Shown: positions 15,096 to 35,023 of the stretch, one piece after another
Numbering within the stretch: the first letter of the stretch is position 1
Layout of the letters: the number at the start of each line of letters is the position of its first letter
DNA from: a virus
Lineage: Duplodnaviria > Heunggongvirae > Uroviricota > Caudoviricetes
Length of the DNA stretch: 36,464 nt
Virus record (IMG/VR): IMGVR_UViG_2645727593_000019
Reading direction: 5' to 3' (one strand)
Position numbers and translations under genes: made by a program
The notes under the pieces: model-generated
The model's database searches: none
What the model saw: only the letters and a program-made list of their open reading frames with translations
Told to the model about the DNA's origin: nothing

Positions 15096-15249
15096 TGCTC
15101 CCCCTGAGTAATTACAGGAAGATTACCCGCGCGCGAAACCGTTCTCCTTAACCCCCTGTTCTGGCCGTTTTCTTACAACAAAAGCCCTTTGTATCAGCCT
15201 GTTACGCTTTGCCATCATGACTGAAGAACCAGTCAGAGGGGCAAAAACT
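15096..15249. promoter_or_regulatory. divergent late promoter region between P and O
   Basis: Intergenic between divergent P and O as in P2; no clean TGT-N12-ACA Ogr site could be confirmed by eye. Confidence 0.4.
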
Positions 15250-22982: not shown

Positions 22983-23583
22983 TTCACTGTTACCACCATC
23001 AGCCAGCAATTTCATGCGTTGTGCCGAAGCCGTCGGAACACGCATTACAGACATTCCGGTAGACCTCAACACGCTGTGGTCGCCGGACACCTGCCCGGTG
23101 CATCTGCTGCCTTATCTCGCCTGGGCGTTTTCCGTTGACCGCTGGGATCGCAACTGGCCGGAAGAGACAAAGCGACAGGTAATTCGTGATGCATGGCTGA
23201 TACACCGACACAAAGGGACCATCAGCGCACTGCGAAGAGCCGTGGAGCCTCTCGGCTACCTGATTGAAGTAAAGGAGTGGTGGCAACTCAACGAGGAGCC
23301 AGGAACATTTCGCATTGTTGTCGGAGTACTTGATCAGGGCATCACCGATGAAATGTATCAGGAACTTGAGCGCCTTATTGCGGATGCAAAACCAGTAAGT
23401 CGCCATCTGACGGGGCTGGCGATCAGCCTGAGTGTGAACGGAAAGATTTTCGTTGGTACGGGATGCTATCACGGCGATGCCCTGACGGTTTATCCCTACA
23501 CCCCGGAGTCCATTATTGTCGAAGGGGATTATTTCCCTGCCCCGGCCATTCATTTAATTGATAATCTGAGAGTAAACGCATGA
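22975..23583 (+). CDS. I: baseplate protein I
   Basis: Track ORF 22942..23583 trimmed to MSNSLLPP; synteny. Confidence 0.8.
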   Translation: MSNSLLPPSASNFMRCAEAVGTRITDIPVDLNTLWSPDTCPVHLLPYLAWAFSVDRWDRNWPEETKRQVIRDAWLIHRHKGTISALRRAVEPLGYLIEVKEWWQLNEEPGTFRIVVGVLDQGITDEMYQELERLIADAKPVSRHLTGLAISLSVNGKIFVGTGCYHGDALTVYPYTPESIIVEGDYFPAPAIHLIDNLRVNA

Positions 23584-25214
23584 CAGTGAAATACTACGCC
23601 ATTCTGACTAATCAGGGCGCAGCACGACTGGCTAACGCGACGATGCTCGGCAGTAAGCTGAATCTGACGCAAATGGCCGTTGGTGATGCAAATGGTGTGT
23701 TACCAACACCAGACCCTGCACAAACAAAACTGATTAACCAGAAACGCATTGCACCGCTGAATCTTCTGAGTGTTGACCCTAACAATCAGAGCCAGATTAT
23801 TGCGGAGCAAATCATCCCTGAAAACGAGGGAGGATTCTGGATCCGTGAGATTGGTCTTTATGATGATGAAGGTGCACTCATTGCGGTGGCAAACTGCCCG
23901 GAAACGTACAAACCGCAGTTGCAGGAAGGCAGTGGACGCACCCAGACTATCCGCATGATTCTGGTTGTCACGAACACCGAAGCCATCACGCTGAAAATCG
24001 ACCCGTCTGTGGTTCTGGCAACCCGCAAATATGTGGATGATAAAATATCAGAGCACGAACAGTCACGACGTCACCCGGACGCCTCGCTGACCGTAAAAGG
24101 TTTTACTCAGTTAAGCAGTGCAATTAACAGTGAATCAGAAACACTGGCCGCAACACCGAAAGCGGTTAAGGCTGCATATGACCTGGCTAACGGGAAATAT
24201 ACCGCCCAGAACGCCACCACTACACAAAAAGGGATTGTTCAGCTCAGTAGCGCCACGAACAGCACGTCTGAAACGCTGGCAGCGACACCAAAAGCTGTTA
24301 AGGCGGTAATGGATGAAACGAACAAGAAAGCACCATTAAACAGCCCGGCACTGACCGGAACGCCAACAACACCAACAGCGCCACAGGGGACTAATAGTAC
24401 CCAGATCGCAAGCACGGCTTTCGTTATGGCTGCGATTGCCGCACTTGTAGATTCGTCACCTGATGCACTGAACACGCTGAACGAACTGGCTGCAGCGCTG
24501 GGCAATGACCCGAATTTTGCGACCACCATGACTAACGCGCTTGCGGGTAAGCAACCGAAGGATGCCACCCTGACGGCGCTGGCGGAGCTTGCTACATCAG
24601 CAGATAAACTCCCATATTTTACAGGGGCAGATCGTGCCGCGTTAACCGCGTTGACAAGTGTTGGACGTGCCATTCTTGGTAAAACCAGCACTCAGGGAGT
24701 TCTTGATTACCTTGGTTTAGGAGAAGCGGCGAAAAGGGATGTGGGCACGACAGTCGGAACCGTTGCCGCTGGTGATGATTTACGCATAATAGGAGCACTT
24801 CAAAAGGCAAATAATCTTTATGAGTTAACAAATAAATCTGACGCAAGAGCTAATCTTGGGTTAGGAACCGTTGCAACAAAAAACGTGGGAAATAGTGCTG
24901 GGCAAATACCTGATATGTCTTACTGGTCTTCCGTATCGGGTGGCGTTAATTTCCCTAATGGATTCCAGATGCGATTCGGTGCTATCGCTGGTAATGGTGG
25001 AAAATTATTTTCTACGCCATTTACAAATCAGTGCTATGGCATTGTTTTCGGACAAACATATGTAGCCAACTACTGGATGTTCAGCCCGATGTACAGAGCA
25101 TCTGATCTGAGTAATACCGGTTTTGCATTCATTAACAAAACCTGGTCTGGCGTTCCGGGGACAGGTGCTCAGGACGCTGGTGAATCAGTTTTTTATATTG
25201 CAGTAGGGTATTAA
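23580..25214 (+). CDS. H: tail fibre protein (expressed orientation)
   Basis: N-terminus MTVKYYAILTNQGAARLANA typical of P2-type H; repeated SETLAATPKAVKA motifs; distinct C-terminal domain. Confidence 0.85.
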   Translation: MTVKYYAILTNQGAARLANATMLGSKLNLTQMAVGDANGVLPTPDPAQTKLINQKRIAPLNLLSVDPNNQSQIIAEQIIPENEGGFWIREIGLYDDEGALIAVANCPETYKPQLQEGSGRTQTIRMILVVTNTEAITLKIDPSVVLATRKYVDDKISEHEQSRRHPDASLTVKGFTQLSSAINSESETLAATPKAVKAAYDLANGKYTAQNATTTQKGIVQLSSATNSTSETLAATPKAVKAVMDETNKKAPLNSPALTGTPTTPTAPQGTNSTQIASTAFVMAAIAALVDSSPDALNTLNELAAALGNDPNFATTMTNALAGKQPKDATLTALAELATSADKLPYFTGADRAALTALTSVGRAILGKTSTQGVLDYLGLGEAAKRDVGTTVGTVAAGDDLRIIGALQKANNLYELTNKSDARANLGLGTVATKNVGNSAGQIPDMSYWSSVSGGVNFPNGFQMRFGAIAGNGGKLFSTPFTNQCYGIVFGQTYVANYWMFSPMYRASDLSNTGFAFINKTWSGVPGTGAQDAGESVFYIAVGY

Positions 25215-25215
25215 T

Positions 25216-25659
25216 ATGGAAATGGTTTATAGCGCCTCAAATAATAGTTTTTTCGCTAAAAATGATGTGGCGAAATATGAACAGGCCGGATGGGAACTTG
25301 CTGATATTGTCGAAGTGACATATGACACTTACCTGGAATTTATTGAAGACAGAACGTTGCAAGGGAAAGTACGCATCGCGGGTGATGATGGCCTTCCCAC
25401 CTGGGGGGAAATTCCACCGCCAACTCATGAGGAACAAATTGCCGCAGCCGAACTGGAAAAGCAGCAATTGATTAATCAGGTCAACGAATACATATACAGT
25501 AAGCAATGGCCTGGTAAAGCAGCGATTGGTCGCCTGAAAGGTGAGGAACTGGCGCAATATAATTTGTGGCTGGATTATCTGGACGCACTGGAACTGGTCG
25601 ATACTTCCGGTGCGCCAGATATTGAATGGCCTACGCCTCCGGCAGTTCAGGCCAGATGA
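25216..25659 (+). CDS. G: tail fibre assembly chaperone
   Basis: Immediately after H; C-terminus APDIEWPTPP mirrors the opposite-strand paralogue. Confidence 0.75.
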   Translation: MEMVYSASNNSFFAKNDVAKYEQAGWELADIVEVTYDTYLEFIEDRTLQGKVRIAGDDGLPTWGEIPPPTHEEQIAAAELEKQQLINQVNEYIYSKQWPGKAAIGRLKGEELAQYNLWLDYLDALELVDTSGAPDIEWPTPPAVQAR

Positions 25660-26224
25660 CGTCCGGCGCTGTGCTGGTATCTGTTGCCGTCACCGCGTCA
25701 ATATAATCCAGCACAGCGTTAAGTCGGGTGTTTTCTGGCTGCGTCAGCTTCCGCCCGGCCTGTAATTTCAGTTGAATCAGACTGATGGAAGCCATTGCAG
25801 CATCAATCAGCGACTGGCGCTGTGCTTCTGCAGCTTCTACTGCGGCGCTATGCTGTGCCTCGGTATCCGTCACCCATTTCTCACCATCCCATTTATCGTA
25901 TGGCGTTAACGGTGAAAGCGTGACATAACCGTCTTTGATGGCACCGATATAATCCACTGTAACAGCTGCGCCATTTTCAGTTGAGTAAACGGTCTCATTG
26001 CGATGGTCTTCTTCATGGCTCCATCCCTTACCCGTAAATACTGCCACTCTTCCCGGAATGTATTCGCCCGGGTCAATACCAGTGGAACAAACGGGCATAC
26101 TTACGCCAGTATTAATATATTCATCAGACCAGCCCGTATATTCAGACGTTACTGCATCATAATAATAACAACGCATATCACCCGGCACTGTAGCCAGCCC
26201 ATTTTCATCAAAAACAGGTTTCAT
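25631..26224 (-). CDS. alternative tail fibre assembly chaperone (silent orientation)
   Basis: Minus-strand paralogue of G with C-terminus APDVIWPELP; its 3' end overlaps G by 29 bp. Confidence 0.7.
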   Translation of the reverse strand: MKPVFDENGLATVPGDMRCYYYDAVTSEYTGWSDEYINTGVSMPVCSTGIDPGEYIPGRVAVFTGKGWSHEEDHRNETVYSTENGAAVTVDYIGAIKDGYVTLSPLTPYDKWDGEKWVTDTEAQHSAAVEAAEAQRQSLIDAAMASISLIQLKLQAGRKLTQPENTRLNAVLDYIDAVTATDTSTAPDVIWPELPEA

Positions 26225-26715
26225 TATGCAGCCCTCACAATATAATTAAAGGCGATGTTACGTGGACGGTTTTCATTAGCTGTTGGCACGACACGAGAGG
26301 CGTCGAATCCAAGGTCATCGGTTTTGCCTATATCAGTTGTGTTATTCGGCATTCTCGCAGATCGTGTTCCTGCATCATAAAAAGCCCCTCTGATTGCATC
26401 AAAAGACATACCGATCCCGCCATCTGCGAATCCCTCAATATTTCTTATTGCATCCCCCTGTGAAGATAATAATTGTCGCCCGGCATCCACACCACGTCCG
26501 TCATCCCAGCCACGAATAAATTCACCGCGTAAATCCGGCAATTTATTTGTCGGATAAACCTTTGCCAGTTCCGGGTATTCTTCAGCAGAAAAAGCCGCAC
26601 CGTTGCATTTCAGCCAGCCAGTAGGCGGTGTGGCTGAAGGCCACGGAACAGGCACACCAACGGGTAATGCCGAACCTTCTCCCAAACCAACGTTTTCGTT
26701 TTTATCCCTACCTAT
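26224..26715 (-). CDS. alternative tail fibre C-terminal cassette (promoterless; 5' limit approximate)
   Basis: Minus-strand frame encoding a collar-type fibre tip (LKCNGAAFSAEEYPELAKVYP...RGEFIRGWDDGRGVD...NIAFNYIVRA); junction residues NVGLGEG resemble H residues NLGLGTV. Confidence 0.65.
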   Translation of the reverse strand: MGRDKNENVGLGEGSALPVGVPVPWPSATPPTGWLKCNGAAFSAEEYPELAKVYPTNKLPDLRGEFIRGWDDGRGVDAGRQLLSSQGDAIRNIEGFADGGIGMSFDAIRGAFYDAGTRSARMPNNTTDIGKTDDLGFDASRVVPTANENRPRNIAFNYIVRAA

Positions 26716-26757
26716 ACCAACTCTGTATTTTTCACGAAACAAAGAGGATGTTTTTTT

Positions 26758-27357
26758 ATGCAAATTGGCTATATTCGTGTGTCAACAAATGACCAGAACA
26801 CGGATTTACAACGCAATGCACTGAACTGCGCAGGATGTGAACTGATTTTTGAAGATAAAATCAGCGGAACGAAATCAGCCAGACCGGGATTGAAAAAACT
26901 GCTCAGAACGCTATCAGAAGGAGATACGCTGGTTGTCTGGAAGCTGGACAGACTGGGCAGAAGTATGAAACACCTGATCACGCTTATTGAGGAATTGCGG
27001 GAAAAAGGTGTTAATTTCCGTAGTCTGACGGACAGCATTGACACATCAACACCCATGGGGCGTTTCTTTTTTCACGTCATGGGGGCTTTAGCCGAAATGG
27101 AACGTGAATTAATTGTAGAGCGTACACTGGCCGGGCTGGCAGCAGCACGCGCACAAGGACGCATTGGCGGACGTCGCCCGAAGTTGACAAAAGAACAACA
27201 CGAGCAAATAGCGAGGCTGATTAAAAACGGTCATGACAGGAAACAACTGGCGATCATTTACGACATCGGCATATCGACGATTTATCGTTATCACCCTGTA
27301 GGCGATATACAGGCTGAAGAAACAACCAGGCAGACTCAGGAAAATAAAAACCGCTAA
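26758..27357 (+). CDS. serine DNA invertase (Gin/Hin/Pin/Cin family)
   Basis: N-terminus MQIGYIRVSTNDQ with the catalytic Ser; C-terminal HTH; adjacent to the inverted fibre cassette. Confidence 0.9.
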   Translation: MQIGYIRVSTNDQNTDLQRNALNCAGCELIFEDKISGTKSARPGLKKLLRTLSEGDTLVVWKLDRLGRSMKHLITLIEELREKGVNFRSLTDSIDTSTPMGRFFFHVMGALAEMERELIVERTLAGLAAARAQGRIGGRRPKLTKEQHEQIARLIKNGHDRKQLAIIYDIGISTIYRYHPVGDIQAEETTRQTQENKNR

Positions 27358-27376
27358 TCTGACCATTAGCGGTTTT
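27346..27376. terminator. bidirectional terminator between the invertase and U
   Basis: AAAAACCGCTAAT-CTGACC-ATTAGCGGTTTT perfect hairpin flanked by A and T runs; spans the invertase stop codon. Confidence 0.7.
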
Positions 27377-27383
27377 GCGTTAA

Positions 27384-27878
27384 TCAAAACAGCCCTTTAA
27401 CGGAGCTGGCCGCGCTGTTAAGGGATGATGTGACCTTATCTTTGAAGCCGGACAGCATATCACTGAACGATGAGGATTGCAGGCGCTCCCGCAAATCCTC
27501 ATCACAGCGTTCAAGAGTCAGTGAAAATTCTATCTTTTTCGCCTTACCGTAGCGATCAAACTCGGAACGGGTCGTATTCGTTTCAGTCAGTACATACATG
27601 CCGTAAATCTGCCCGACACCATCAATCAGAGGCCAGGGGCGTCCTGTATATGCCTGCGTGGTCAGCAACGAAAGCGACACTTCGCCACCTGTAATTTCAG
27701 GATAAAGCACGCCGGAAAGCACGATGCGATCATCACCTGCGCCGATATACTGCCAGCTTGCTGAACGGTTAACGCGTTCATTTTTCACATGCCGCCAGCT
27801 TTTGTTTTGCTGTAACTGCTGATGCGGCAATGTGCGCAGCTCAAAAACAAACATGCCATAGATCATCATCATGGCCAT
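27384..27878 (-). CDS. U: tail protein U
   Basis: Directly downstream of T on the minus strand; size as P2 U. Confidence 0.7.
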   Translation of the reverse strand: MAMMMIYGMFVFELRTLPHQQLQQNKSWRHVKNERVNRSASWQYIGAGDDRIVLSGVLYPEITGGEVSLSLLTTQAYTGRPWPLIDGVGQIYGMYVLTETNTTRSEFDRYGKAKKIEFSLTLERCDEDLRERLQSSSFSDMLSGFKDKVTSSLNSAASSVKGLF

Positions 27879-27884
27879 GACTCC

Positions 27885-30692
27885 TCAATCTTTATCGTAA
27901 AAACTGCCACGTCCGGCACGGTCGCGTCGTTCCAATTCTGCCCTGACCATTTCACCGACCAGTTTCGCCAGTTCGCGGGGATTCTGCGTAACAACGTTAT
28001 GCAGATGAACATGAATTTCACCGCCAAATCCGGAGACAACAGGCTCCCGGTTACGGGAAGTTGCAGGAACTGATGCCACTGGCGATCGTATGGCCTCCGC
28101 CACCGGGCGGGAGCTGGCCGCAACAACAGGGACCAGCGCCGGAGGCAGAGGAGTCGGGACCACGGGTGTGATGTTGATTGCGGAAGCAGGCTTACTGACC
28201 TGCGCAATCTTCCGCTCCTGCCACTCCCCACGAACAGCAAGTGCGCGGGGCAGATTCTTAAAGACAATATCGCCGGGGCCAATGCGTTTTTTCGTCTCAT
28301 CAACCAGCTTACCTGTGTTATCAGCAATTTTGCTGAGTCTGCGTAGCGTACCGGTATTGCTGTCTGTGAGCGGTTTGTTGTCTTTGGGTTTATCACCTCC
28401 GGTGCCATTGCCATTTTCCACAGGCTTCGGCGGATTGATTTTCGCCAGGTCCCCCTGAAGCAAGGCAACCTTGTCCTGAAGAATGGCCGCACGCTGTGCG
28501 TCTTCGATTTTCTTGCGCGCCCTTTCCGCTTCATCCGGAAGGACGCCAAGTTTTTCAAGTATCCACGCCAGCGTATCCAGTAGCATTTTTGCAGGCGTCA
28601 GAACAAGTTGTAACGCACCGCCAAGAACGTTACCGAATATCTCGCCAGCACTGGTACATTTATCCAGCGTTTCCTTGCTGGACTCCATCGGTGACAGCAG
28701 CGATTTAAACCAGTTAAACACCTGGCTGATCCCGCTTCCGATTGCGTCAAAAACAGGACCAAACCGTTCAAAGGTTTCGCGCAACGGGGCCAGCCTTTCC
28801 ATAATCCCGCTGAACACCCCGGCAAAAAATGCCCTGATGGGATCCCAGTATTTCCAGATAAGTACGGCAGCTCCGGCAAGTGCAGCCACGATAAGACCAA
28901 CCGGACTGAACAGCGCCCCGATAGCGCCTCCCAGTAAAGAAACGGAACCCGTCACCATTCCCCATAGTGCTGGCAGGACCCTGACAGCATTCATTGATCC
29001 GGTCAGGAAAGAAAAACCAAGACGCAGTTTTGCCAGCGGACCAGCAAGCACACCAATAGCCAGCGACAACGAGCCAACCGTTGCAGTCATTGCTAGCAAC
29101 GCACCGCCTGCTATCAGTAGCTGGCGCGTCAGTGCCGGATGGGCCTGCGCCAGCGCCGTCACCCTTGATACCACCCGCGTGAGCCACTGCGTGACAGAAC
29201 GCAGCGGACCGTCAATCAGATCTGCAATGCGGATGCGCAACCCTTCCCATGCACTGCCGAGTGATTTCAGATCGCCGTCAAGGTTGTTGGCCATAACCTT
29301 TGCTGTGCGTTCAGCCTCACCGCGCGCGCCTTCAAGTTCTTTTCTCAGTTTGGGTAAGGAACCGTCACCCGCTGCATCAACGAGCGCCATAAACGATGTG
29401 AAAGCCTCTTCTCCGGCAATGTCCTTAAAGAACGATACCCGGTCAACTTCCCCGTATTTGCGGGTGGCTTTATAAAGGTCGGCCAGCACATCCTCCATCG
29501 GGCGCATTTTGCCCCCGGCATCCGAGACGGACACGCCCAGCTCTTTCAGAGCTTCTGCCGCCGCCTTTGGCGGTGATGCCAGACGAGCCAGGCTGGCACG
29601 CATTGCCGTCCCGGCATCACTCCCTCTGATGCCCATATTCGCCAGCACGCCAGCCATCGCTGCGGCCTGCTCCAGCGATATTCCCAGCTTACCCGCCACC
29701 GGACCTGCATATTTCATGGTTTCGCCCAGTGCGCGAAGGTCAGTGTTGGTACGGGTAAACGCTGCGGTGAGTGTGTCACCGACCCGGTCCATCTGGTCAG
29801 CAGAAAGGCCGAACTGCGTCAGGATATTTGAGCCAATATCTGCCGTCTCGCCGAGATCCATACCGCCAGCCGTTGCCATGCTCAGCACTCCGGGAAGCGC
29901 AGCCTGAATGGCCTGCGGTGTGAAGCCAGCCATTGCAAGAAATGCCTGCCCACTGGCGGCATCGCCTGCGGTGAACTGCGTTTCAGAGCCAAGTTTTAAC
30001 GCCTGCTCACGCAGCGCCTTAAACTGCGGGCTGTTCTGGTCGATTCGCGTCAGCGCCTGAACGCGGGACATCTCTTTGCCGAACCCGATCGCGGGCTGCA
30101 AAAAACGCCCGGCAGCATAGCCGCCCGCCGCTGCCGCACCAATTGCCAGCGCACCACCTGTTTTCAGTTTTCCCGCGGTTTCCTGCGCGCGCGAATACCG
30201 CTCACGCGCCCGCGTTACACGCGCAAGCGCCTGCCGTTCGCGTTCAAGCTGGTTGTTGTACTGTTCGGTGCGTCTGATGGCCTGCTGGATGGTGTTATCG
30301 CTGCCTGTCAGGGAAATGCCGTGGCGTTTCAGCTCTCCGCCAAGTTCCCGCATTTTCTGAATTTCCCGTGTGCGCGATTCATTCAGGCGTTCAAGCCGGG
30401 TGCTTAACTGCTGCATCAGCTTTTGTTGTTTTTCGCTGAGCACTGTACCCGTGCGTTGTAACTGATTAAGAGCGTTAAGCTGGCGTCGTGCTTTCAATAT
30501 GCCAGCATCCGCTTTACTGACAGCGTCACGGGCGCGCTCAAATGAACGCGCCTGACGCTCGAGATTTTTGATCGCCCCCTGCGTTCGCTGGATGGAGTCA
30601 CCAAACTGCCCCATCAGGCGGCGGGCGTTTTCGGCAGGCCGGGTCAGCCTGTCAACGGCGCTGAAAGCGACCCGGATATCAAGAGTCTTCAT
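27885..30692 (-). CDS. T: tail tape measure protein
   Basis: Track ORF 27885..30728; start chosen at MKTLDIRVAFSAVDRLTRP to align with the P2 T N-terminus; Ala/Gly-rich TM-like core. Confidence 0.85.
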   Translation of the reverse strand: MKTLDIRVAFSAVDRLTRPAENARRLMGQFGDSIQRTQGAIKNLERQARSFERARDAVSKADAGILKARRQLNALNQLQRTGTVLSEKQQKLMQQLSTRLERLNESRTREIQKMRELGGELKRHGISLTGSDNTIQQAIRRTEQYNNQLERERQALARVTRARERYSRAQETAGKLKTGGALAIGAAAAGGYAAGRFLQPAIGFGKEMSRVQALTRIDQNSPQFKALREQALKLGSETQFTAGDAASGQAFLAMAGFTPQAIQAALPGVLSMATAGGMDLGETADIGSNILTQFGLSADQMDRVGDTLTAAFTRTNTDLRALGETMKYAGPVAGKLGISLEQAAAMAGVLANMGIRGSDAGTAMRASLARLASPPKAAAEALKELGVSVSDAGGKMRPMEDVLADLYKATRKYGEVDRVSFFKDIAGEEAFTSFMALVDAAGDGSLPKLRKELEGARGEAERTAKVMANNLDGDLKSLGSAWEGLRIRIADLIDGPLRSVTQWLTRVVSRVTALAQAHPALTRQLLIAGGALLAMTATVGSLSLAIGVLAGPLAKLRLGFSFLTGSMNAVRVLPALWGMVTGSVSLLGGAIGALFSPVGLIVAALAGAAVLIWKYWDPIRAFFAGVFSGIMERLAPLRETFERFGPVFDAIGSGISQVFNWFKSLLSPMESSKETLDKCTSAGEIFGNVLGGALQLVLTPAKMLLDTLAWILEKLGVLPDEAERARKKIEDAQRAAILQDKVALLQGDLAKINPPKPVENGNGTGGDKPKDNKPLTDSNTGTLRRLSKIADNTGKLVDETKKRIGPGDIVFKNLPRALAVRGEWQERKIAQVSKPASAINITPVVPTPLPPALVPVVAASSRPVAEAIRSPVASVPATSRNREPVVSGFGGEIHVHLHNVVTQNPRELAKLVGEMVRAELERRDRAGRGSFYDKD

Positions 30693-31217
30693 TGTCTGTA
30701 TTCCCGCTGCGAAGTGCCGCCCGCTCACGCCAGCTAACCACTTCGCCGGGAGTCATCATGAAGATTTCGGCGGGCGACCAGTTAAAAATGGTGGCAATAT
30801 CCGCCACCAGATCTTCGATGTGCTCAAAGCACACCAGGGTGATTACGCTGCCGTCTCCTGCACGCTCTTCGCGCCAGAGTCTGGCTCGCTCATAAAATTT
30901 ACAGCCACAGCGCACAACTGAATAAAATCGCGTGACGACATTTTTTTAATCATCACTTCATCCAGTTGTGGCGAGGTCACGCGAGGCAACAGCGTGAACA
31001 TGGTATCCGCTTTCAGATTCAGCACATCAGACAGCGACAGACCACGCAGGGATCCCGCCTGCTCAATAGCCCCGGTGATCTCCACATATGTGATTTTTTC
31101 GGCACCACGCTCAATTGGCCGGGAAAGTTTTACACCACGTTCGACAGCCATATCCTCACCTGCCGTCACATCATCCGCTACGGTGTTATTCCGGGTTTCA
31201 GTATCGATATTTTTCAT
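30679..31217 (-). CDS. E+E' fusion made by a programmed -1 frameshift
   Basis: The -1 frame (track ORF 30679..30915) opens right after an A7 run (plus strand T7 at 30941-30947) inside E; same arrangement as P2 E/E' and lambda G/GT. Confidence 0.55.
30843..31217 (-). CDS. E: tail assembly chaperone E
   Basis: Track ORF between FII and T; 124 aa. Confidence 0.7.
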   Translation of the reverse strand: MKNIDTETRNNTVADDVTAGEDMAVERGVKLSRPIERGAEKITYVEITGAIEQAGSLRGLSLSDVLNLKADTMFTLLPRVTSPQLDEVMIKKMSSRDFIQLCAVAVNFMSEPDSGAKSVQETAA

Positions 31218-31272
31218 CAGTTGTCTCCTTTTCAGTCAGAGGCGACGCACTGCGCCGCCTGCATATTACTTA

Positions 31273-31785
31273 TCAGCCAAGCCCGAGCGCGGAACGGATG
31301 CGATCGGGCACAATGTCCTTGCCGTCCTTCCGGTAAATGAAGTTCAGCAGGTCAATCTCCCACAACGGGCGATCGTTAACACTCAGCTTGTAGTAGGTGT
31401 TTTTAATGGCGTAAGTGTGTGATGTGGCTTCGCCCTGTTTGGCTTCCCCCATATCAATTTCCGTCACACGTCCGCGCATTTCGACTTCATACAGGTCGCT
31501 TTCTGCATCGGTGTAATATTCACCCGCAAAACGCAGCAGCGTGCCGTCAATCGTGCCGCCATACTTAAGGAACAGCTCACGAACTGCGCCCCCCATGACA
31601 AAGCTCGCATCAAGCGCGGAGTCGTCCAGACCGAGATCAATACTTACCGCCCCCATCATGCCACCACCCCGGTAGCTGTCGGTTTTGCGCGTCAGCTTAG
31701 GCAGGGTGACGGACGTCACCTTACCCACTTCGTTTTCACCATCCACAAACAGCGTAAAAAAGCGAAGATGTTTTGGCACAGCCAT
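31273..31785 (-). CDS. FII: tail tube protein
   Basis: Matches P2 FII (VTLPKLTRK, YRG, DLGLDD, RFAG, MRGR). Confidence 0.85.
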   Translation of the reverse strand: MAVPKHLRFFTLFVDGENEVGKVTSVTLPKLTRKTDSYRGGGMMGAVSIDLGLDDSALDASFVMGGAVRELFLKYGGTIDGTLLRFAGEYYTDAESDLYEVEMRGRVTEIDMGEAKQGEATSHTYAIKNTYYKLSVNDRPLWEIDLLNFIYRKDGKDIVPDRIRSALGLG

Positions 31786-32969
31786 CAGGCACCTCCCAGC
31801 ACCGCAAATGCGGGTTCAAAGTATTCATCAGTAAACGTCTGGTAAAGCTCCATGTCTTCCAGCGGAGGAACTGGCGTATATTTGTAGCGAATACGCACAC
31901 GCCCCTGACGTAAATCCGTGGTGCTGTTATCCACCACGTCATACCAGCACTCCGCGCCAATCAGTTTCCCGGCAGTCACCAGTGAATCCAGTTTTGCCCT
32001 GATGGCACTGATAACATCCTTCACGTTCGCAGGCGTCAGTGGACTGTCGATGGTTTCAAACTGCGCTTCCGCAATTGAATCAGCCAGCACCTGTGCGGTT
32101 CGGGTATACACCTCAAAGATGTAGGCGTTCGTTTCCGGTGTGCGGTTGCCCCAGAAGCGGAACCCGTTGCGACGAATAATGGTCGTGATTTCTTTGTTGT
32201 TGAGGCTGTTGGCATCACTGTCTTCGACCTGCAACGACCAGAACACATGCCTGGACATCCCCAGCACATTTTTAACCGGAACGTTGGACAGCGATTTGTG
32301 CCAGCCCTGCTCATGGTCAATGTACGCACGAAGGCCGCACGCATAGGCAGGTGCGGGGAACGTTTCGTTTTTGCCACTTTTCGAGTTGTAGGCGATGAAG
32401 TCCGGCCATAAGAGCATCACCTCACGTTCGTTGAATTTCTGGCGGTAGGTAATCGCCTCAGCCATCGTGTTACAGCCGTGACATGAGGCATACACAAACG
32501 CGCGCAGTTTACCCGCAATCACGCACAGGGATTTTGTTACCGCCTCCGTGTCCAGCTCCGGCGCGGCCAGAATACGCGGACGGTATCCGATGCTTTCATC
32601 CTGCTCTGCAACAAGCAGCGCATACATCCCCGTATAGCTGCCGTCAGATTCAGAACCACCGATAACCAGTTGATCCTGCGTTTTTCCGTCTTCTTCTTTG
32701 TGTTCAGCCACGCGAACGACGATCACCTTTGTGCTCACCTGGTCTGCGATGGCCTTAAGCGCACGATAAAGCGTCCCCGTTGTCCCGCATTTTCCCAGCA
32801 CGTCATTGACGCGGGTCAGCAGTGTGGGCTTGTTCAGCGGGAACAGCTCCGCATCCGCATCATCCGCCGTTGCCACGATACCGATAACACTGGAATCAAC
32901 ATCATTAATCGCTGTTACCAGGTCGGTACTTTCCGTAACACGGGCACCATGAAAACGAGTTTCACTCAT
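31785..32969 (-). CDS. FI: tail sheath protein
   Basis: Matches P2 FI (ADDADAELFPLNKP, KLRAF, WPDF, EQGWHK, RRNGFRFWGNRT, YTRTAQV, YTPVPPLE). Confidence 0.9.
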   Translation of the reverse strand: MSETRFHGARVTESTDLVTAINDVDSSVIGIVATADDADAELFPLNKPTLLTRVNDVLGKCGTTGTLYRALKAIADQVSTKVIVVRVAEHKEEDGKTQDQLVIGGSESDGSYTGMYALLVAEQDESIGYRPRILAAPELDTEAVTKSLCVIAGKLRAFVYASCHGCNTMAEAITYRQKFNEREVMLLWPDFIAYNSKSGKNETFPAPAYACGLRAYIDHEQGWHKSLSNVPVKNVLGMSRHVFWSLQVEDSDANSLNNKEITTIIRRNGFRFWGNRTPETNAYIFEVYTRTAQVLADSIAEAQFETIDSPLTPANVKDVISAIRAKLDSLVTAGKLIGAECWYDVVDNSTTDLRQGRVRIRYKYTPVPPLEDMELYQTFTDEYFEPAFAVLGGA

Positions 32970-33126
32970 AGCTTCAGCCCCTTGTATCCGTTAAATGATT
33001 CAGCAACAATCATCACCCACCACGCGCGTAATCTCACCCCTGCGTTATTCTCCCGCCACGGCGACAACAAAAAGCAGTAACCCACTCCGCACGCACATGC
33101 GACCATGCCGCACAGGGAGGGAACAG
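32970..33126. promoter_or_regulatory. divergent intergenic region between FI and D (late promoters expected)
   Basis: 157-bp gap between divergent operon starts; SD GGGAGGG before the D start. Confidence 0.35.
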
Positions 33127-34236
33127 ATGACCGACACCACCATGCAATTGCTCAGTCAGGGCACAGACCCCGTGAAAATGCCGGATTTTGATATTCTCGC
33201 GGAGGGTAAAACGCTGTCCGGCGTGGCAGAGCGCCTGATGAGCCTGTCGCTGACCGACAACCGGGGATTTGAGGCGGACCAGCTCACCATCACGCTGGAT
33301 GATGCCGATGGCCAGTTGCAGCTACCGCCACGGGGAGCGCCTCTGACGGTTCTCATTGGCTGGAAAGGGGAACCGCTGACAGAAAAAGGCACTTACATTG
33401 TTGATGAAATCGCTCACGAAGGACCGCCGGACAGGCTGACTGTTTCAGCCAGAAGCGCAGATTTTCGGGATGAATTTAACGTTAAACGTGAGGTGTCCTG
33501 GCATGATGTGACCGTTGAGCGTGTGGTATCCGCCATCGCTCATCGGTATGGTCTGAAACCGCAAATCAGCGAAATGCTGATGGATATCGAAATCGACCAC
33601 GCCGACCAGACCGAAGAAAGCGACATGTCCTTCCTTACGCGCATGGCGGAAATGCTGGGCGCAATCACCACGGTAAAAAGCGGCAATCTGTTATTCATCA
33701 TGCCAGGCGGTGGCGTGAACGCACAGGGCCAGCCGTTGCCCTCGTTCGCCATCACACGCAGCAGCGGCGATCGCCATCAGTTCCGCATTGCTGACCGCGA
33801 GGCGTATACGGGGGTACGCGCCTACTGGCTTGATCTTAATTACGGGAAAAAGAAAAAAGTCAGCGTGAAACGCCGTAAACCGCCAAAACCCAAAAAGGAG
33901 AAAAGCAGCAGCCGTGAAGGTGATTATATGGAAGGCGCGGAAGGCAATGTGTTTGTGTTACGCAAGACTTATCAGAACGAGCAGGCAGCAAGACACGCAG
34001 CGGCGGCAAAGTGGCAGCAACTACAACGCGGAGCCGCATCATTCTCCATCACACTGGCTCGTGGACGCGCAGAACTCTACCCCGAAATGCATGGCACGGT
34101 GACAGGCTTCAAAAGTGACATCGACAATCAGGACTGGATTATTGCAAAAGCCGAGCACACCATTGATAACAGCGGCTTTACCACGCAGCTTGAGCTTGAA
34201 GCAAAAATCCCGGAATGGATAGCAGAAACAGAGTGA
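33127..34236 (+). CDS. D: tail protein D (late control D family)
   Basis: Track ORF 32995..34236 trimmed to MTDTTMQ with SD; gpD-family features including a lysine-rich linker (KKKKVSVKRRKPPKPKKEK). Confidence 0.8.
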   Translation: MTDTTMQLLSQGTDPVKMPDFDILAEGKTLSGVAERLMSLSLTDNRGFEADQLTITLDDADGQLQLPPRGAPLTVLIGWKGEPLTEKGTYIVDEIAHEGPPDRLTVSARSADFRDEFNVKREVSWHDVTVERVVSAIAHRYGLKPQISEMLMDIEIDHADQTEESDMSFLTRMAEMLGAITTVKSGNLLFIMPGGGVNAQGQPLPSFAITRSSGDRHQFRIADREAYTGVRAYWLDLNYGKKKKVSVKRRKPPKPKKEKSSSREGDYMEGAEGNVFVLRKTYQNEQAARHAAAAKWQQLQRGAASFSITLARGRAELYPEMHGTVTGFKSDIDNQDWIIAKAEHTIDNSGFTTQLELEAKIPEWIAETE

Positions 34237-34278
34237 GCAACTTAGAATAGCGGCAGCACCACGTTAAAGGAGGTCGCT

Positions 34279-34539
34279 ATGTTCCGTTGTCCGCTTTGTG
34301 GCGCATCTGCCCGTATCCGCACCAGTCGTTCGGAAAATGATTCAAACACCGTACGGAAAAAATATTACCAGTGTAACAACCTGGAATGCGGCATAAGTTT
34401 CTCAACACTGGAAGCTTTCCATAAATTCACATCGAAACACGCCCCCGGCGTTCACTCTTCAGAAGGTATCCCGTGGCATGAGTTGCCAGCTTCACACAGG
34501 GGAAACAATCAGATGAGTTTGCCTTTATCTCAGAATTAA
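34279..34539 (+). CDS. ogr: Ogr/Delta-family zinc-finger late transcription activator
   Basis: MFRCPLCG...YYQCNNLECG matches the P2 Ogr Cys4 pattern (MFHCPLC...YHQCQNVNC). Confidence 0.8.
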   Translation: MFRCPLCGASARIRTSRSENDSNTVRKKYYQCNNLECGISFSTLEAFHKFTSKHAPGVHSSEGIPWHELPASHRGNNQMSLPLSQN

Positions 34540-34730
34540 CAGGCAGAATTGCCGGAGTAACAAAAAAGCGATAGATTACGCGCGGGTGCCTTTCGGCTGA
34601 TGGTCGGAGGGAATACCCGAAGGCCGGATGTGGAAAGGCCCCGGAAAACATCTCTGTTTAACCGAGGCCCTAACATATCTACCTTAAGCAAGTGATAGGT
34701 TAGCGCCTCTCCAACAAAGGAGCAAGCGCT

Positions 34731-34871
34731 ATGTCGCAAAAATCGCTTACGGCCATCACGTTCTGCGTGACGGTAATCCTCATAATCTGGATGCTGCACG
34801 GTTCGCTGTGTGAAATACGGATGAGCTTCTGGGGAGCGGAGTTTGCGGCGTTCTTACAGTGTAAGCAGTAA
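34731..34871 (+). CDS. hok: Hok/Gef-family type I toxin
   Basis: 46-aa ORF MSQKSLTAITFCVTVILIIWMLHGSLCEIRMSFWGAEFAAFLQCKQ: TM helix followed by the SLCEIR and AAFL.CK signatures of Hok proteins; SD AAGGAG 9 nt upstream. Confidence 0.6.
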   Translation: MSQKSLTAITFCVTVILIIWMLHGSLCEIRMSFWGAEFAAFLQCKQ

Positions 34872-34957
34872 GGAAACCGCGACGGGGGAGCAATCCCCCG
34901 TCAATCGGTTGCCAGGGTAAGGTCGATAAGGCACCCTATCTCACAGACATGAACAAC

Positions 34958-34992
34958 AAACCCGCAGCGTAAAAACTGCGGGTTTTCTTTTT
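34958..34992 (+). terminator. rho-independent terminator after hok
   Basis: AAACCCGCAG-loop-CTGCGGGTTT followed by a T-rich tract. Confidence 0.7.
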
Positions 34993-35023
34993 GGTTCCCT
35001 CACTCATGAGGACACCAAAAACA

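Follow-up and report, generated by a model that had tools for sequence, protein, structure and literature searches.

The tail genes of phage P2 and the structure of its late operons are well described, and its late promoters share the consensus TGT-N12-ACA (PMC3931495). The records of P2, SopEPhi and Kapieceevirus all show FI, FII, E, T, U, D and ogr running in one direction, which bears out the canonical order that a preliminary description of this DNA had taken as its reference. In P2-type genomes, including the SopEPhi/Fels-2-like phages and Kapieceevirus, the U and D genes overlap, and D lacks a separate promoter. For the P2-like phage Smp131, a single TGT-N12-ACA dyad has been assigned to the divergent late promoters PP' and PO' (PMC3931495). 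Nearer to the locus studied here are P88 and the Salmonella phages SEN4 and SEN5; neither the orientation of the tail genes nor an inversion is mentioned in the papers on P88 (PMC5285337), SEN4/5 (PMC5261728) and a C. rodentium prophage (PMC6456863) and in a preprint on Serratia PP4. A keyword literature search likewise returned, among searchable papers, none discussing an inversion of the block or a promoter between FI and D. Publicly available genomes already contain the arrangement.

The window analyzed here, the whole 36,464-nucleotide stretch of an IMG/VR virus record, contains all the P2-type contractile tail families (GpU, PhageMin_Tail, Phage_tube, three sheath domains and Phage_GPD), and it shares with P2 the internal FI-to-U order and the position of ogr after D. 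It departs from the canonical co-directional FI-FII-E-E'-T-U-D operon with its U/D overlap: FI to U are encoded on the minus strand, D on the plus strand. Because the P2, SopEPhi and Kapieceevirus records are co-directional throughout, the block is inverted relative to P2.

Gene content and boundaries of the tail block

Open reading frames and Pfam matches together assign U, T, E/E', FII and FI to a minus-strand block at 27384-32969 and D and ogr to the plus strand, in agreement with the preliminary description. On one side the block is flanked by a hairpin terminator and a serine invertase gene, and on the other by a divergent region facing D and ogr. The tail protein U gene (27384-27878) matches Phage_P2_GpU at 5.5e-39. 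The tape-measure gene T matches PhageMin_Tail at 3.7e-58; its open reading frame covers 27885-30728, and homology to annotated relatives places the likely start at 30692, the T gene being 2808 nt long in both P88 and E2348/69. The tail tube gene FII (31273-31785) matches Phage_tube at 7.5e-47, and the tail sheath gene FI (31785-32969) matches Phage_sheath_1, Gp18_domIII_N and Phage_sheath_1C.

Between T and FII, an open reading frame at 30843-31217 was assigned to the tail chaperone E, and a frame at about 30679-30834 to E', its GpE-family frameshift extension, both on the minus strand. These two identities derive from position and from the annotation of relatives, in which the corresponding genes are labeled 'tail protein' and 'GpE family phage tail protein'; a profile scan, which covered E, gave no Pfam match at E<=0.001.

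On the plus strand, the gene for the baseplate hub and late control protein D (33127-34236; Phage_GPD, 2.4e-17) starts at the ATG at 33127, preceded by its own Shine-Dalgarno sequence GGGAGGG at 33115-33121. This start codon aligns with that of annotated D in P88 and Shae_phiSM; an alternative start at 32995 was rejected, as the longer frame is a mere in-frame upstream extension of D. The ogr gene (34279-34539; Ogr_Delta, 1e-15), encoding an Ogr/Delta-type zinc-finger late activator, begins 42 bp 3' of D. No terminator-like site was found in the D-ogr gap, and hairpins at 34880-34903 and 34958-34985 come after ogr.

The left boundary is a hairpin with a 12-bp stem at 27347-27376, between the convergent invertase and U genes. 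It had been described as a bidirectional terminator, and this is borne out in part: the hairpin folds on both strands (-15.7 kcal/mol and z-score -3.8 on the plus strand; -17.6 kcal/mol and z-score -3.0 on the minus strand), but a good T-run follows it on the minus strand alone, the U side, where the tail reads TTTTTATTTT. The right boundary is the divergent FI-D spacer at 32970-33126, whose 157 bp match the length previously given.

Distribution of the inverted order

Close relatives were compared with the window over 25000-35000. In megablast, P88, P884B11 and Shae_phiSM each gave a single collinear match of 94-96% identity over 8.2 kb, and the span from the invertase through U..FI to D and ogr was also found at 92-96% identity in 520873 and 500465-2, there split into two or three joined segments. 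In P88 and Shae_phiSM, the block has the same annotated strands and gene order as in the window. PhiR44_2 and Chuche align only from about 27300 onward, a position in the 3'-terminal part of the invertase gene. By these comparisons, the window is a P88-like prophage, probably of the genus Xuanwuvirus (family Peduoviridae); the genus threshold is about 70% nucleotide identity over the entire genome. Members of this genus (P88, P884B11, Citrobacter phage Shae_phiSM, 520873, 500465-2 and PhiR44_2) share with it the strands, the 157-bp spacer, the dyad and the -10 elements described below; their tail-fibre cassettes upstream of 26764 differ from those of the window, since the match begins only at the invertase. 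In some relatives, IS100 insertions lie inside the block.

A wider survey demonstrated that the arrangement extends far beyond this genus. All 43 informative loci from about 20 Enterobacterales genera, with D 64-98% identical to that of the window, have J, I and H running rightward, then U, T, E, FII and FI leftward, then D and ogr rightward. An invertase beside U was detected in just 6 of 46 bacterial-genome loci, and the gene order was the same regardless. Across a total of 128 loci, the block was inverted in every informative locus with D at least 60% identical (120/120) and canonical in every locus with D at most 54% identical (8/8); the canonical order is that of SopEPhi, Kapieceevirus, P2, phiCTX and PHL101. 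In neighbor-joining trees of D and of FI, built on a thinned locus set and rooted on phiCTX, the inverted loci were monophyletic.

SEN4 and SEN5 (Senquatrovirus) resemble the window in having U, T, E, FII and FI leftward and D rightward, separated by a short divergent spacer with a TGT-N12-ACA dyad. They differ in a D protein only 63% identical, in a -10 element without the exact TGn register and in the annotation of ogr; moreover, SEN5 carries the inverted block with no invertase, and the same holds for SEN4.

The inverted block is thus the normal, inherited order of a branch of P2-like phages that includes P88/Xuanwuvirus, SEN4/5 and many enterobacterial prophages, and of the explanations first put forward it is the lineage-specific architecture that these loci and the collinear P88, P884B11 and Shae_phiSM genomes uphold. 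The suggestion of a recent inversion is contradicted, as close relatives overwhelmingly share the arrangement. The full account that we regard as very probable comprises a lineage-fixed block, a single ancestral FI-to-U inversion, the resulting split of the operon and an inferred promoter for D.

The divergent FI-D spacer

Alignment of relatives identified a single conserved dyad in the spacer, an Ogr-type activator site TCT-N12-ACA at 33049-33066 (centre 33057.5; flank ACAACAAAAAG). Of 100 unique FI-D spacers, 94 contain the motif T[GC]T-N12-ACAA; many relatives have TGT at the aligned position of the left half, so that the window site is a one-base variant of the TGT-N12-ACA consensus, and the N12 varies freely. 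An exact search for TGT-N12-ACA gave five matches, below chance and none in the FI-D spacer; it missed the dyad because one half reads TCT in the window, and the site was recovered only through the alignment. The P-O spacer of the window holds a site of the same type. A generic sigma-70 scan found no promoter in the FI-D spacer, which is expected of activator-dependent promoters lacking a -35 element.

On the FI side, a candidate -10-like hexamer of the putative FI-FII-E-T-U promoter (PF), GATGAT, lies on the minus strand at 33009-33014, 46 bp from the dyad centre. Almost all of the 94 unique dyad-bearing relatives have an nAnnAT hexamer at this 46-bp offset, and the PF of the canonical-order phage SopEPhi has GAACAT there, an identical dyad/-10 geometry. 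P2, the SopEPhi/Fels-2-like phages and Kapieceevirus carry an Ogr-type dyad 5' of FI at the same distance from the -10 element as in the window. The distance from dyad to FI start codon is 78-81 bp in SopEPhi and Kapieceevirus versus 88 bp in the window.

On the D side, a candidate extended -10 element of a putative D-ogr promoter (PD), TGCGACCAT (TGn followed by GACCAT), lies on the plus strand at 33098-33106. It would mirror the PF -10 across the same dyad at 46 bp. In almost every one of about 80 unique sequences with D at least 66% identical, TGnnAnnnT and the dyad centre are separated by 46 (+/-1) bp, the exceptions being two sequences at 43 bp; among homologous sequences such constancy could partly reflect shared descent. 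The TG, A2 and T6 positions of the element rank with the best-conserved columns of the alignment. SEN5-like members, with D 60-64% identical, are the most distant, and their D-side element is out of the exact TGn register. Across relatives, the dyad and the FI ATG are 78 to 88 bp apart and the spacer measures 157 to 198 bp, while the 46-bp spacing is maintained, indicating that indels are tolerated in the leaders and not between dyad and -10. The D-side element is absent 5' of the PF dyad in canonical-order phages, in which terminator hairpins stand where the window has its inferred divergent promoter. An origin of PD as a duplicate of PP or PF was considered and rejected: beyond the dyad and a CGCGCG motif, pairwise alignments gave no persuasive sign of homology.

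This geometry points to a single activator site serving FI-U as well as D-ogr, and D appears to have its own promoter. In the proposed model, a single Ogr-type site near -55 would activate both divergent late promoters. Late promoters of P2 depend on an Ogr-family activator that contacts the alpha subunit of RNA polymerase, and they have a -10 element but no good -35. The P2 Ogr site is reportedly located at -55, and the window dyad would lie near this position if transcription starts, as assumed, about 7 nt after each hexamer. Since ogr is downstream of D, Ogr would in this proposal reinforce its own late synthesis. The Smp131 dyad offers a parallel; it is assigned to the head-gene P/O pair, whereas the window dyad would serve a lineage-specific PF/PD pair produced by inversion. 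We give even odds to the complete model, that is, a mirror-symmetric bidirectional late promoter descended from an ancient inversion, with the one dyad at 33049-33066, a -10 element 46 bp to each side, FI-U and a new extended -10 promoter for D-ogr under joint control, and feedback by ogr.

A less likely, though still serious, alternative is that the orientation is lineage-fixed but that D-ogr is driven independently of the shared dyad, from a constitutive, early or other-factor promoter such as an activator-independent extended -10. A TGn extension can free a promoter from a -35 element or an activator, and two features of the spacer fit this reading. The dyad flanks are asymmetric, with the T-rich extension distal for PF and PP and proximal for PD; the flank orientation therefore suits PF and PP and not PD, and the dyad may be optimized for PF alone. 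In addition, a CGCGCGC block is conserved between the dyad and the D-side -10 and may be bound by another protein. Against an independent promoter stand the mirrored 46-bp spacing, kept in nearly all of the roughly 80 sequences while leaders vary, and the weak hexamers (GACCAT, AACTAT, GATCCT), which are typical of activator-dependent promoters. D is also a late structural protein, needed together with the FI-U products.

Origin of the inverted order and the neighboring invertase

Under the single-inversion account, the event would have taken place once, long ago, in the ancestor of this P2-like branch, with one breakpoint in the moron/terminator region that follows the tail-fibre genes and the other precisely at the U-D boundary. 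The effect would have been to divide the 'F operon' of P2 (FI FII E E' T U D) into a leftward FI-FII-E/E'-T-U unit and a rightward D-ogr unit, and the old PF promoter with its Ogr-binding dyad would have been carried along with the block. D, no longer translationally coupled to U, would have gained its own ribosome-binding site.

The polarity of gene order cannot be proved from extant genomes alone, and tail modules recombine among P2-like phages; the inverted order might accordingly be ancestral for Peduoviridae and the P2 order derived, or the block might have been gained in reverse by module exchange. We consider this improbable: the genes run in one direction in phiCTX and PHL101, the outgroups, as in every other genus sampled, and whether the tree is built on D or on FI, the inverted loci group as a single nested clade. 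Furthermore, FI and D identities drop in parallel across loci, the pattern expected if the block was inverted in place and the genes then diverged together. It may nevertheless be that a module in reverse orientation replaced the original one, with no in-place inversion.

The gene adjoining the block, a serine DNA invertase of the Gin/Cin/Pin/Hin type (26758-27357, plus strand; Resolvase 1.5e-51, HTH_7 1.4e-12), is annotated as a DNA invertase in P88 and Shae_phiSM. A query with Mu gixL at up to 3 mismatches found no match in the window, and a looser query with several hix, gix and cix sequences revealed two cix/gix-like sites. The left site (24700-24725, matched at 24710-24725, minus strand) lies inside the tail-fibre gene H and reads TTCTCCTAAACCAAGG; the right site (26677-26702, matched at 26677-26692, plus strand) lies just upstream of the invertase gene and reads TTCTCCCAAACCAACG. 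They are mutually inverted and are the sole two matches in the window within 3 mismatches. The sites bracket the H C-terminus/G and G'/H' cassettes, and the minus strand of the segment carries Collar-domain and Caudo_TAP open reading frames. With an invertase, two inverted sites and alternative fibre cassettes, the segment 24700-26702 has, as judged from genes and sites alone, the components of an invertible segment, and it resembles the Mu G, P1 C and e14 P segments in its inverted cix-like sites about 2 kb apart and its alternative H C-terminus/G cassettes. From this arrangement we conclude that the left cix-like site is probably the true invertase substrate, outside the inverted tail block, and that the invertase would switch tail-fibre cassettes only, between 24700-24725 and 26677-26702, and is unrelated to the orientation of the block. 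Unlike the Gin/Cin/Pin/Hin segments, the 5.6-kb tail block lies outside the switch, has no crossover sites and was never found flipped.

Serine invertases occasionally use quasi-sites. Given this general property and the adjacency of the gene, a recent or ongoing 5.6-kb inversion by the invertase at pseudo-cix sites at 27340-27390 and 32970-33130 was considered, having been raised in the preliminary description as inversion through a secondary site. No cix-like site was found in either interval within 3 mismatches, and inverted-repeat searches yielded chance-level pairs only, with no repeat bracketing the block; these searches also missed the cix-like sites of the fibre segment, which are too short or degenerate for that tool. 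SEN5 and most of the 43 informative loci have the same arrangement without an invertase. Among 5426 complete E. coli genomes, the intact FI-D junction was present in 1355 and the intact invertase-U junction in 620, whereas a synthetic canonical U-to-D junction, as expected of the flipped state, was present in none. With the only two cix/gix-like sites flanking the fibre segment, an invertase-driven origin of the block orientation is extremely improbable. An assembly artefact, whether a contig mis-join or a mis-orientation of the tail block, has nothing in its favor except that the order is unusual relative to P2, and has a negligible probability, given that hundreds of complete genomes, as well as independently sequenced phages, contain both block junctions at 95-99.9% identity, that the FI-D junction is also found in independently sequenced, induced phages, and that the divergent spacer contains conserved regulatory elements.

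Taken together, these results make the inverted block a marker of the P88/SEN4-like lineage of Peduoviridae, carried by about one in four complete E. coli genomes. It represents neither a rearrangement event nor a phase-variable element nor an error. The divergence of FI and D is a simple synteny character by which this clade can be told apart from prophages of the P2, 186, Fels-2-like and Kapieceevirus types. The split of the F operon required a new route for the expression of D and ogr, and the strongly conserved mirror-image architecture around one Ogr-type dyad makes it easy to test whether an activator site came to be shared once an inversion had broken an operon. If the model is correct, the locus would be a natural example of an inversion-split operon rewired by re-use of an existing symmetric activator site, and ogr would be under direct positive feedback from its own product.

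Gene order of the tail region

Gene identities were assigned from an ORF map combined with Pfam scans, which agreed with the earlier gene calls for the U-T-E-FII-FI block. The tail-fibre gene H (23580-25214) and the fibre assembly gene G (25216-25659) lie on the plus strand, followed by the minus-strand alternative assembly (25631-26224) and fibre-tip (26224-26763) cassettes and a plus-strand serine invertase gene (26758-27357). U (27384-27878), T (27885-30728, start probably at 30692), E (30843-31217), FII (31273-31785), and FI (31785-32969) are all on the minus strand, and D (33127-34236) and ogr (34279-34539) are on the plus strand. The convergent invertase and U genes are separated by a 12-bp hairpin (27347-27376) that folds well on either strand, with the superior T-tail facing U. 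The divergent FI–D spacer (32970-33126) is 157 bp long, as previously noted. D starts at ATG 33127, with GGGAGGG ahead of it; position 32995 was rejected as a start, being merely an in-frame extension upstream of this codon. The long ORF that opens at 32995 (the stretch concerned is 32995-33126) and P88 gp50 (a 43-aa "hypothetical protein" annotated in the FI–D spacer at 12173-12304 of L001, the P88 locus) overlap conserved promoter elements; they are probably not genes, because indels vary this spacer among relatives.

In P2, SopEPhi, and a Kapieceevirus, U and D overlap, and the series FI-FII-E-E'-T-U-D-ogr runs on one strand. Since all three series are co-directional, the block in the window is inverted relative to the canonical order, confirming the arrangement as an observation.

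The invertase and its substrates

Two cix-like sites were the sole matches in the window at up to three mismatches: TTCTCCTAAACCAAGG at 24710-24725 on the minus strand, inside H, and TTCTCCCAAACCAACG at 26677-26692 on the plus strand, directly upstream of the invertase gene. They enclose the customary alternative tail-fibre cassettes, namely the H C-terminus and G together with the opposed G' and H' (24700-26702). These two sites are the real substrates of the invertase, and 24700-26702 together with the invertase gene constitutes a complete Cin/Gin-type tail-fibre switch. At the fibre cassettes the region does not match P88-like phages; the matches of these cassettes to SKA5 and Klebsiella Kp48xx phages, among others, indicate cassette exchange.

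The preliminary description had raised the possibility that the invertase inverted the block through a secondary site. A search of 27340-27390 and 32970-33130 for gix- or hix-like sites revealed nothing comparable to the cix-like sites at up to three mismatches, and no inverted repeats enclosing the 5.6-kb block were found. This explanation is refuted; all three defining features tested are absent, which places the block outside the class of invertible segments.

Conservation and age of the inverted arrangement

Megablast of window positions 25000-35000 against phage genomes provided the alignment to P2-like relatives, and the close phages proved collinear with the window on the same strands. 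Escherichia phage P88, Xuanwuvirus P884B11, and Citrobacter phage Shae_phiSM each gave a single collinear match of 94-96% identity from the invertase to past ogr; phages 500465-2 and 520873 covered the same span at 92-95% identity in two or three joined pieces. The public records of P88 and Shae_phiSM annotate these genes on the same strands as in the window. Among 5426 complete E. coli genomes, 1355 carried the intact FI–D junction and 620 the intact invertase–U junction, and a synthetic canonical junction (U then D) was covered by a single match in none. The collinear relatives, the 1355 genomes, and the zero canonical count also dispose of a recent event or an assembly artefact: the block order is neither of these, nor a switch.

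Individual relatives carry lesions of their own. Phages 520873 (NC_049344) and 503458 (NC_049341) have IS100 (IS21-family) inserted in the tape-measure/sheath region of the tail block, and these otherwise P88-like prophages are probably defective. The E. coli E2348/69 prophage (L135, NC_011601 1900388-1902092) has junctions 99.9% identical to those of the window; RefSeq places a pseudogene fragment and a shortened 792-nt VgrG/Pvc8-family D gene 3' of its FI–D spacer, and an additional 666-nt hypothetical gene ahead of ogr. D seems to be disrupted or rearranged there and intact in the window.

A D-protein scan using one genome per bacterial species yielded 46 loci with D 64-98% identical, from about 20 Enterobacterales genera including Salmonella, Citrobacter, Klebsiella, Enterobacter, Kosakonia, Serratia, Erwinia, Pantoea, Pectobacterium, Brenneria, Edwardsiella, and Symbiopectobacterium. 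By tblastn with the window proteins, all informative loci share the order J> I> H> ... U< T< E< FII< FI< D> ogr>; the invertase adjoins U in only 6 of the 46. Two loci with D 97-98% identical come from assemblies labelled Firmicutes despite an E. coli-type prophage D: a 226-kb Vagococcus sp. WN89Y contig (L004), which holds the complete block from J to ogr, and a 4.2-kb Planococcaceae MAG contig (L045). Enterobacterial contamination or mis-binning of these assemblies is most likely.

The set was enlarged by 80 IMG/VR contigs and reference phages, and it divided cleanly: the block was inverted in each of the 120 loci whose D is at least 60% identical to that of the window and canonical in each of the 8 whose D is at most 54% identical. 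Salmonella phage SEN5 (Senquatrovirus; D 63% identical) is inverted like the window but lacks the invertase; in phiCTX and Mannheimia phage PHL101 the series is co-directional. Neighbour-joining trees built for D and for FI, with phiCTX as the root, place the inverted loci in one clade that holds no canonical member. The simplest reading is a single ancient inversion that the common ancestor of the P88/SEN4-like Peduoviridae branch fixed. The earlier interpretation is partly supported: lineage-specific architecture was the right option, while a role of the invertase and an assembly artefact are both refuted. The window belongs to the P88-like Xuanwuvirus prophages, and its arrangement is already known from databases, as it is seen in many deposited, annotated genomes; no published comment on it was found in the literature searched.

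The FI–D spacer and probable expression of the split operon

FI–D spacers of diverged relatives were aligned, and 100 unique sequences were then analyzed. Four elements are strongly conserved, and the rest varies freely. The first is a dyad, T(G/C)T-N12-ACAACAA, in 94 of the 100 (TCT..ACA at 33049-33066 in the window, centre 33057.5); it fits the Ogr-dependent P2 late-promoter consensus TGT-N12-ACA (PMC3931495), the window half-site being TCT rather than TGT. The second is an FI-side -10-like hexamer, nAnnAT, 46 bp from the dyad centre (GATGAT, 33009-33014, minus strand). The third is a D-side extended -10, TGnnAnnnT, 46 (±1) bp from the dyad centre, with the putative window copy TGCGACCAT at 33098-33106 on the plus strand; it occurs in every spacer whose D is at least 66% identical, in two of them at 43 bp, and its TG, A2, and T6 columns rank among the best conserved. 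In the SEN5-like group, a D-side -10-like hexamer lies about 1 base farther out. The fourth is a CGCGCGC block between the dyad and the D-side -10. This alternating sequence, at 33080-33097 and aligned positions in loci L005-L126, is conserved across the entire inverted clade, and CGCGCG similarly precedes the -10 elements of the P promoter (PP) and the FI–U late promoter (PF) in the window; it may serve these late promoters as a spacer or as part of their -35 region, or be recognized by some other factor. Across relatives, the spacer measures 157-198 bp and the dyad lies 78-88 bp from the FI ATG, while the 46-bp distances remain constant on both sides, those two 43-bp cases aside.

The Ogr/Delta site of P2 late promoters is centred at about -55 (P2/P4 literature). 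Assuming a start about 7 nt past each hexamer, the dyad centre falls at about -55 for both promoters. Judged from these patterns, the chances are about even that one symmetric Ogr-type site is shared by two divergent late promoters, leftward PF and a rightward D–ogr promoter (PD). The PF of canonical SopEPhi has a dyad/-10 geometry equal to that of the window's FI side, suggesting that the old PF was carried with the inverted block. Canonical-order phages have a terminator hairpin 5' of the PF dyad and lack the mirrored -10; PD would be a lineage-specific new late promoter opposite PF on the same Ogr-type site. It would transcribe D and ogr jointly. The 42-bp gap between them holds nothing resembling a terminator, and ogr is followed by hairpins at 34880-34985. 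Such cotranscription would provide late positive feedback on ogr.

The divergent P–O spacer (15096-15216) contains a single TCT-N12-ACA dyad (15160-15177) with the same T-rich flank, TTTTGTTGT, as the PF site, and on its P side a -10-like TAATCT at 46 bp with CGCGCGC ahead of it. Only about 48 bp separate the dyad centre from the start codon of O, which makes a -55 position impossible for the O promoter, and no second dyad for it was found in this spacer. In phage Smp131, one dyad has been suggested to serve two divergent late promoters, those of P and O (PMC3931495), as proposed here for PF and PD.

The chief alternative makes PD an extended -10 promoter independent of Ogr, which would be compatible with the asymmetry of the dyad flanks and with the CGCGCGC block, for which a shared site does not account. 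Separately, two overlapping sigma-70-like matches (GTGACA-18-GACAAT and GTGACA-16-GATTAT) lie at 34099-34142 on the plus strand, near the end of the D gene and about 140 bp ahead of ogr. They score only 9/12, such matches being no commoner than expected by chance, and could represent an independent early ogr promoter resembling Pogr of P2.

The proposed PF/PD architecture is a modest and testable addition.
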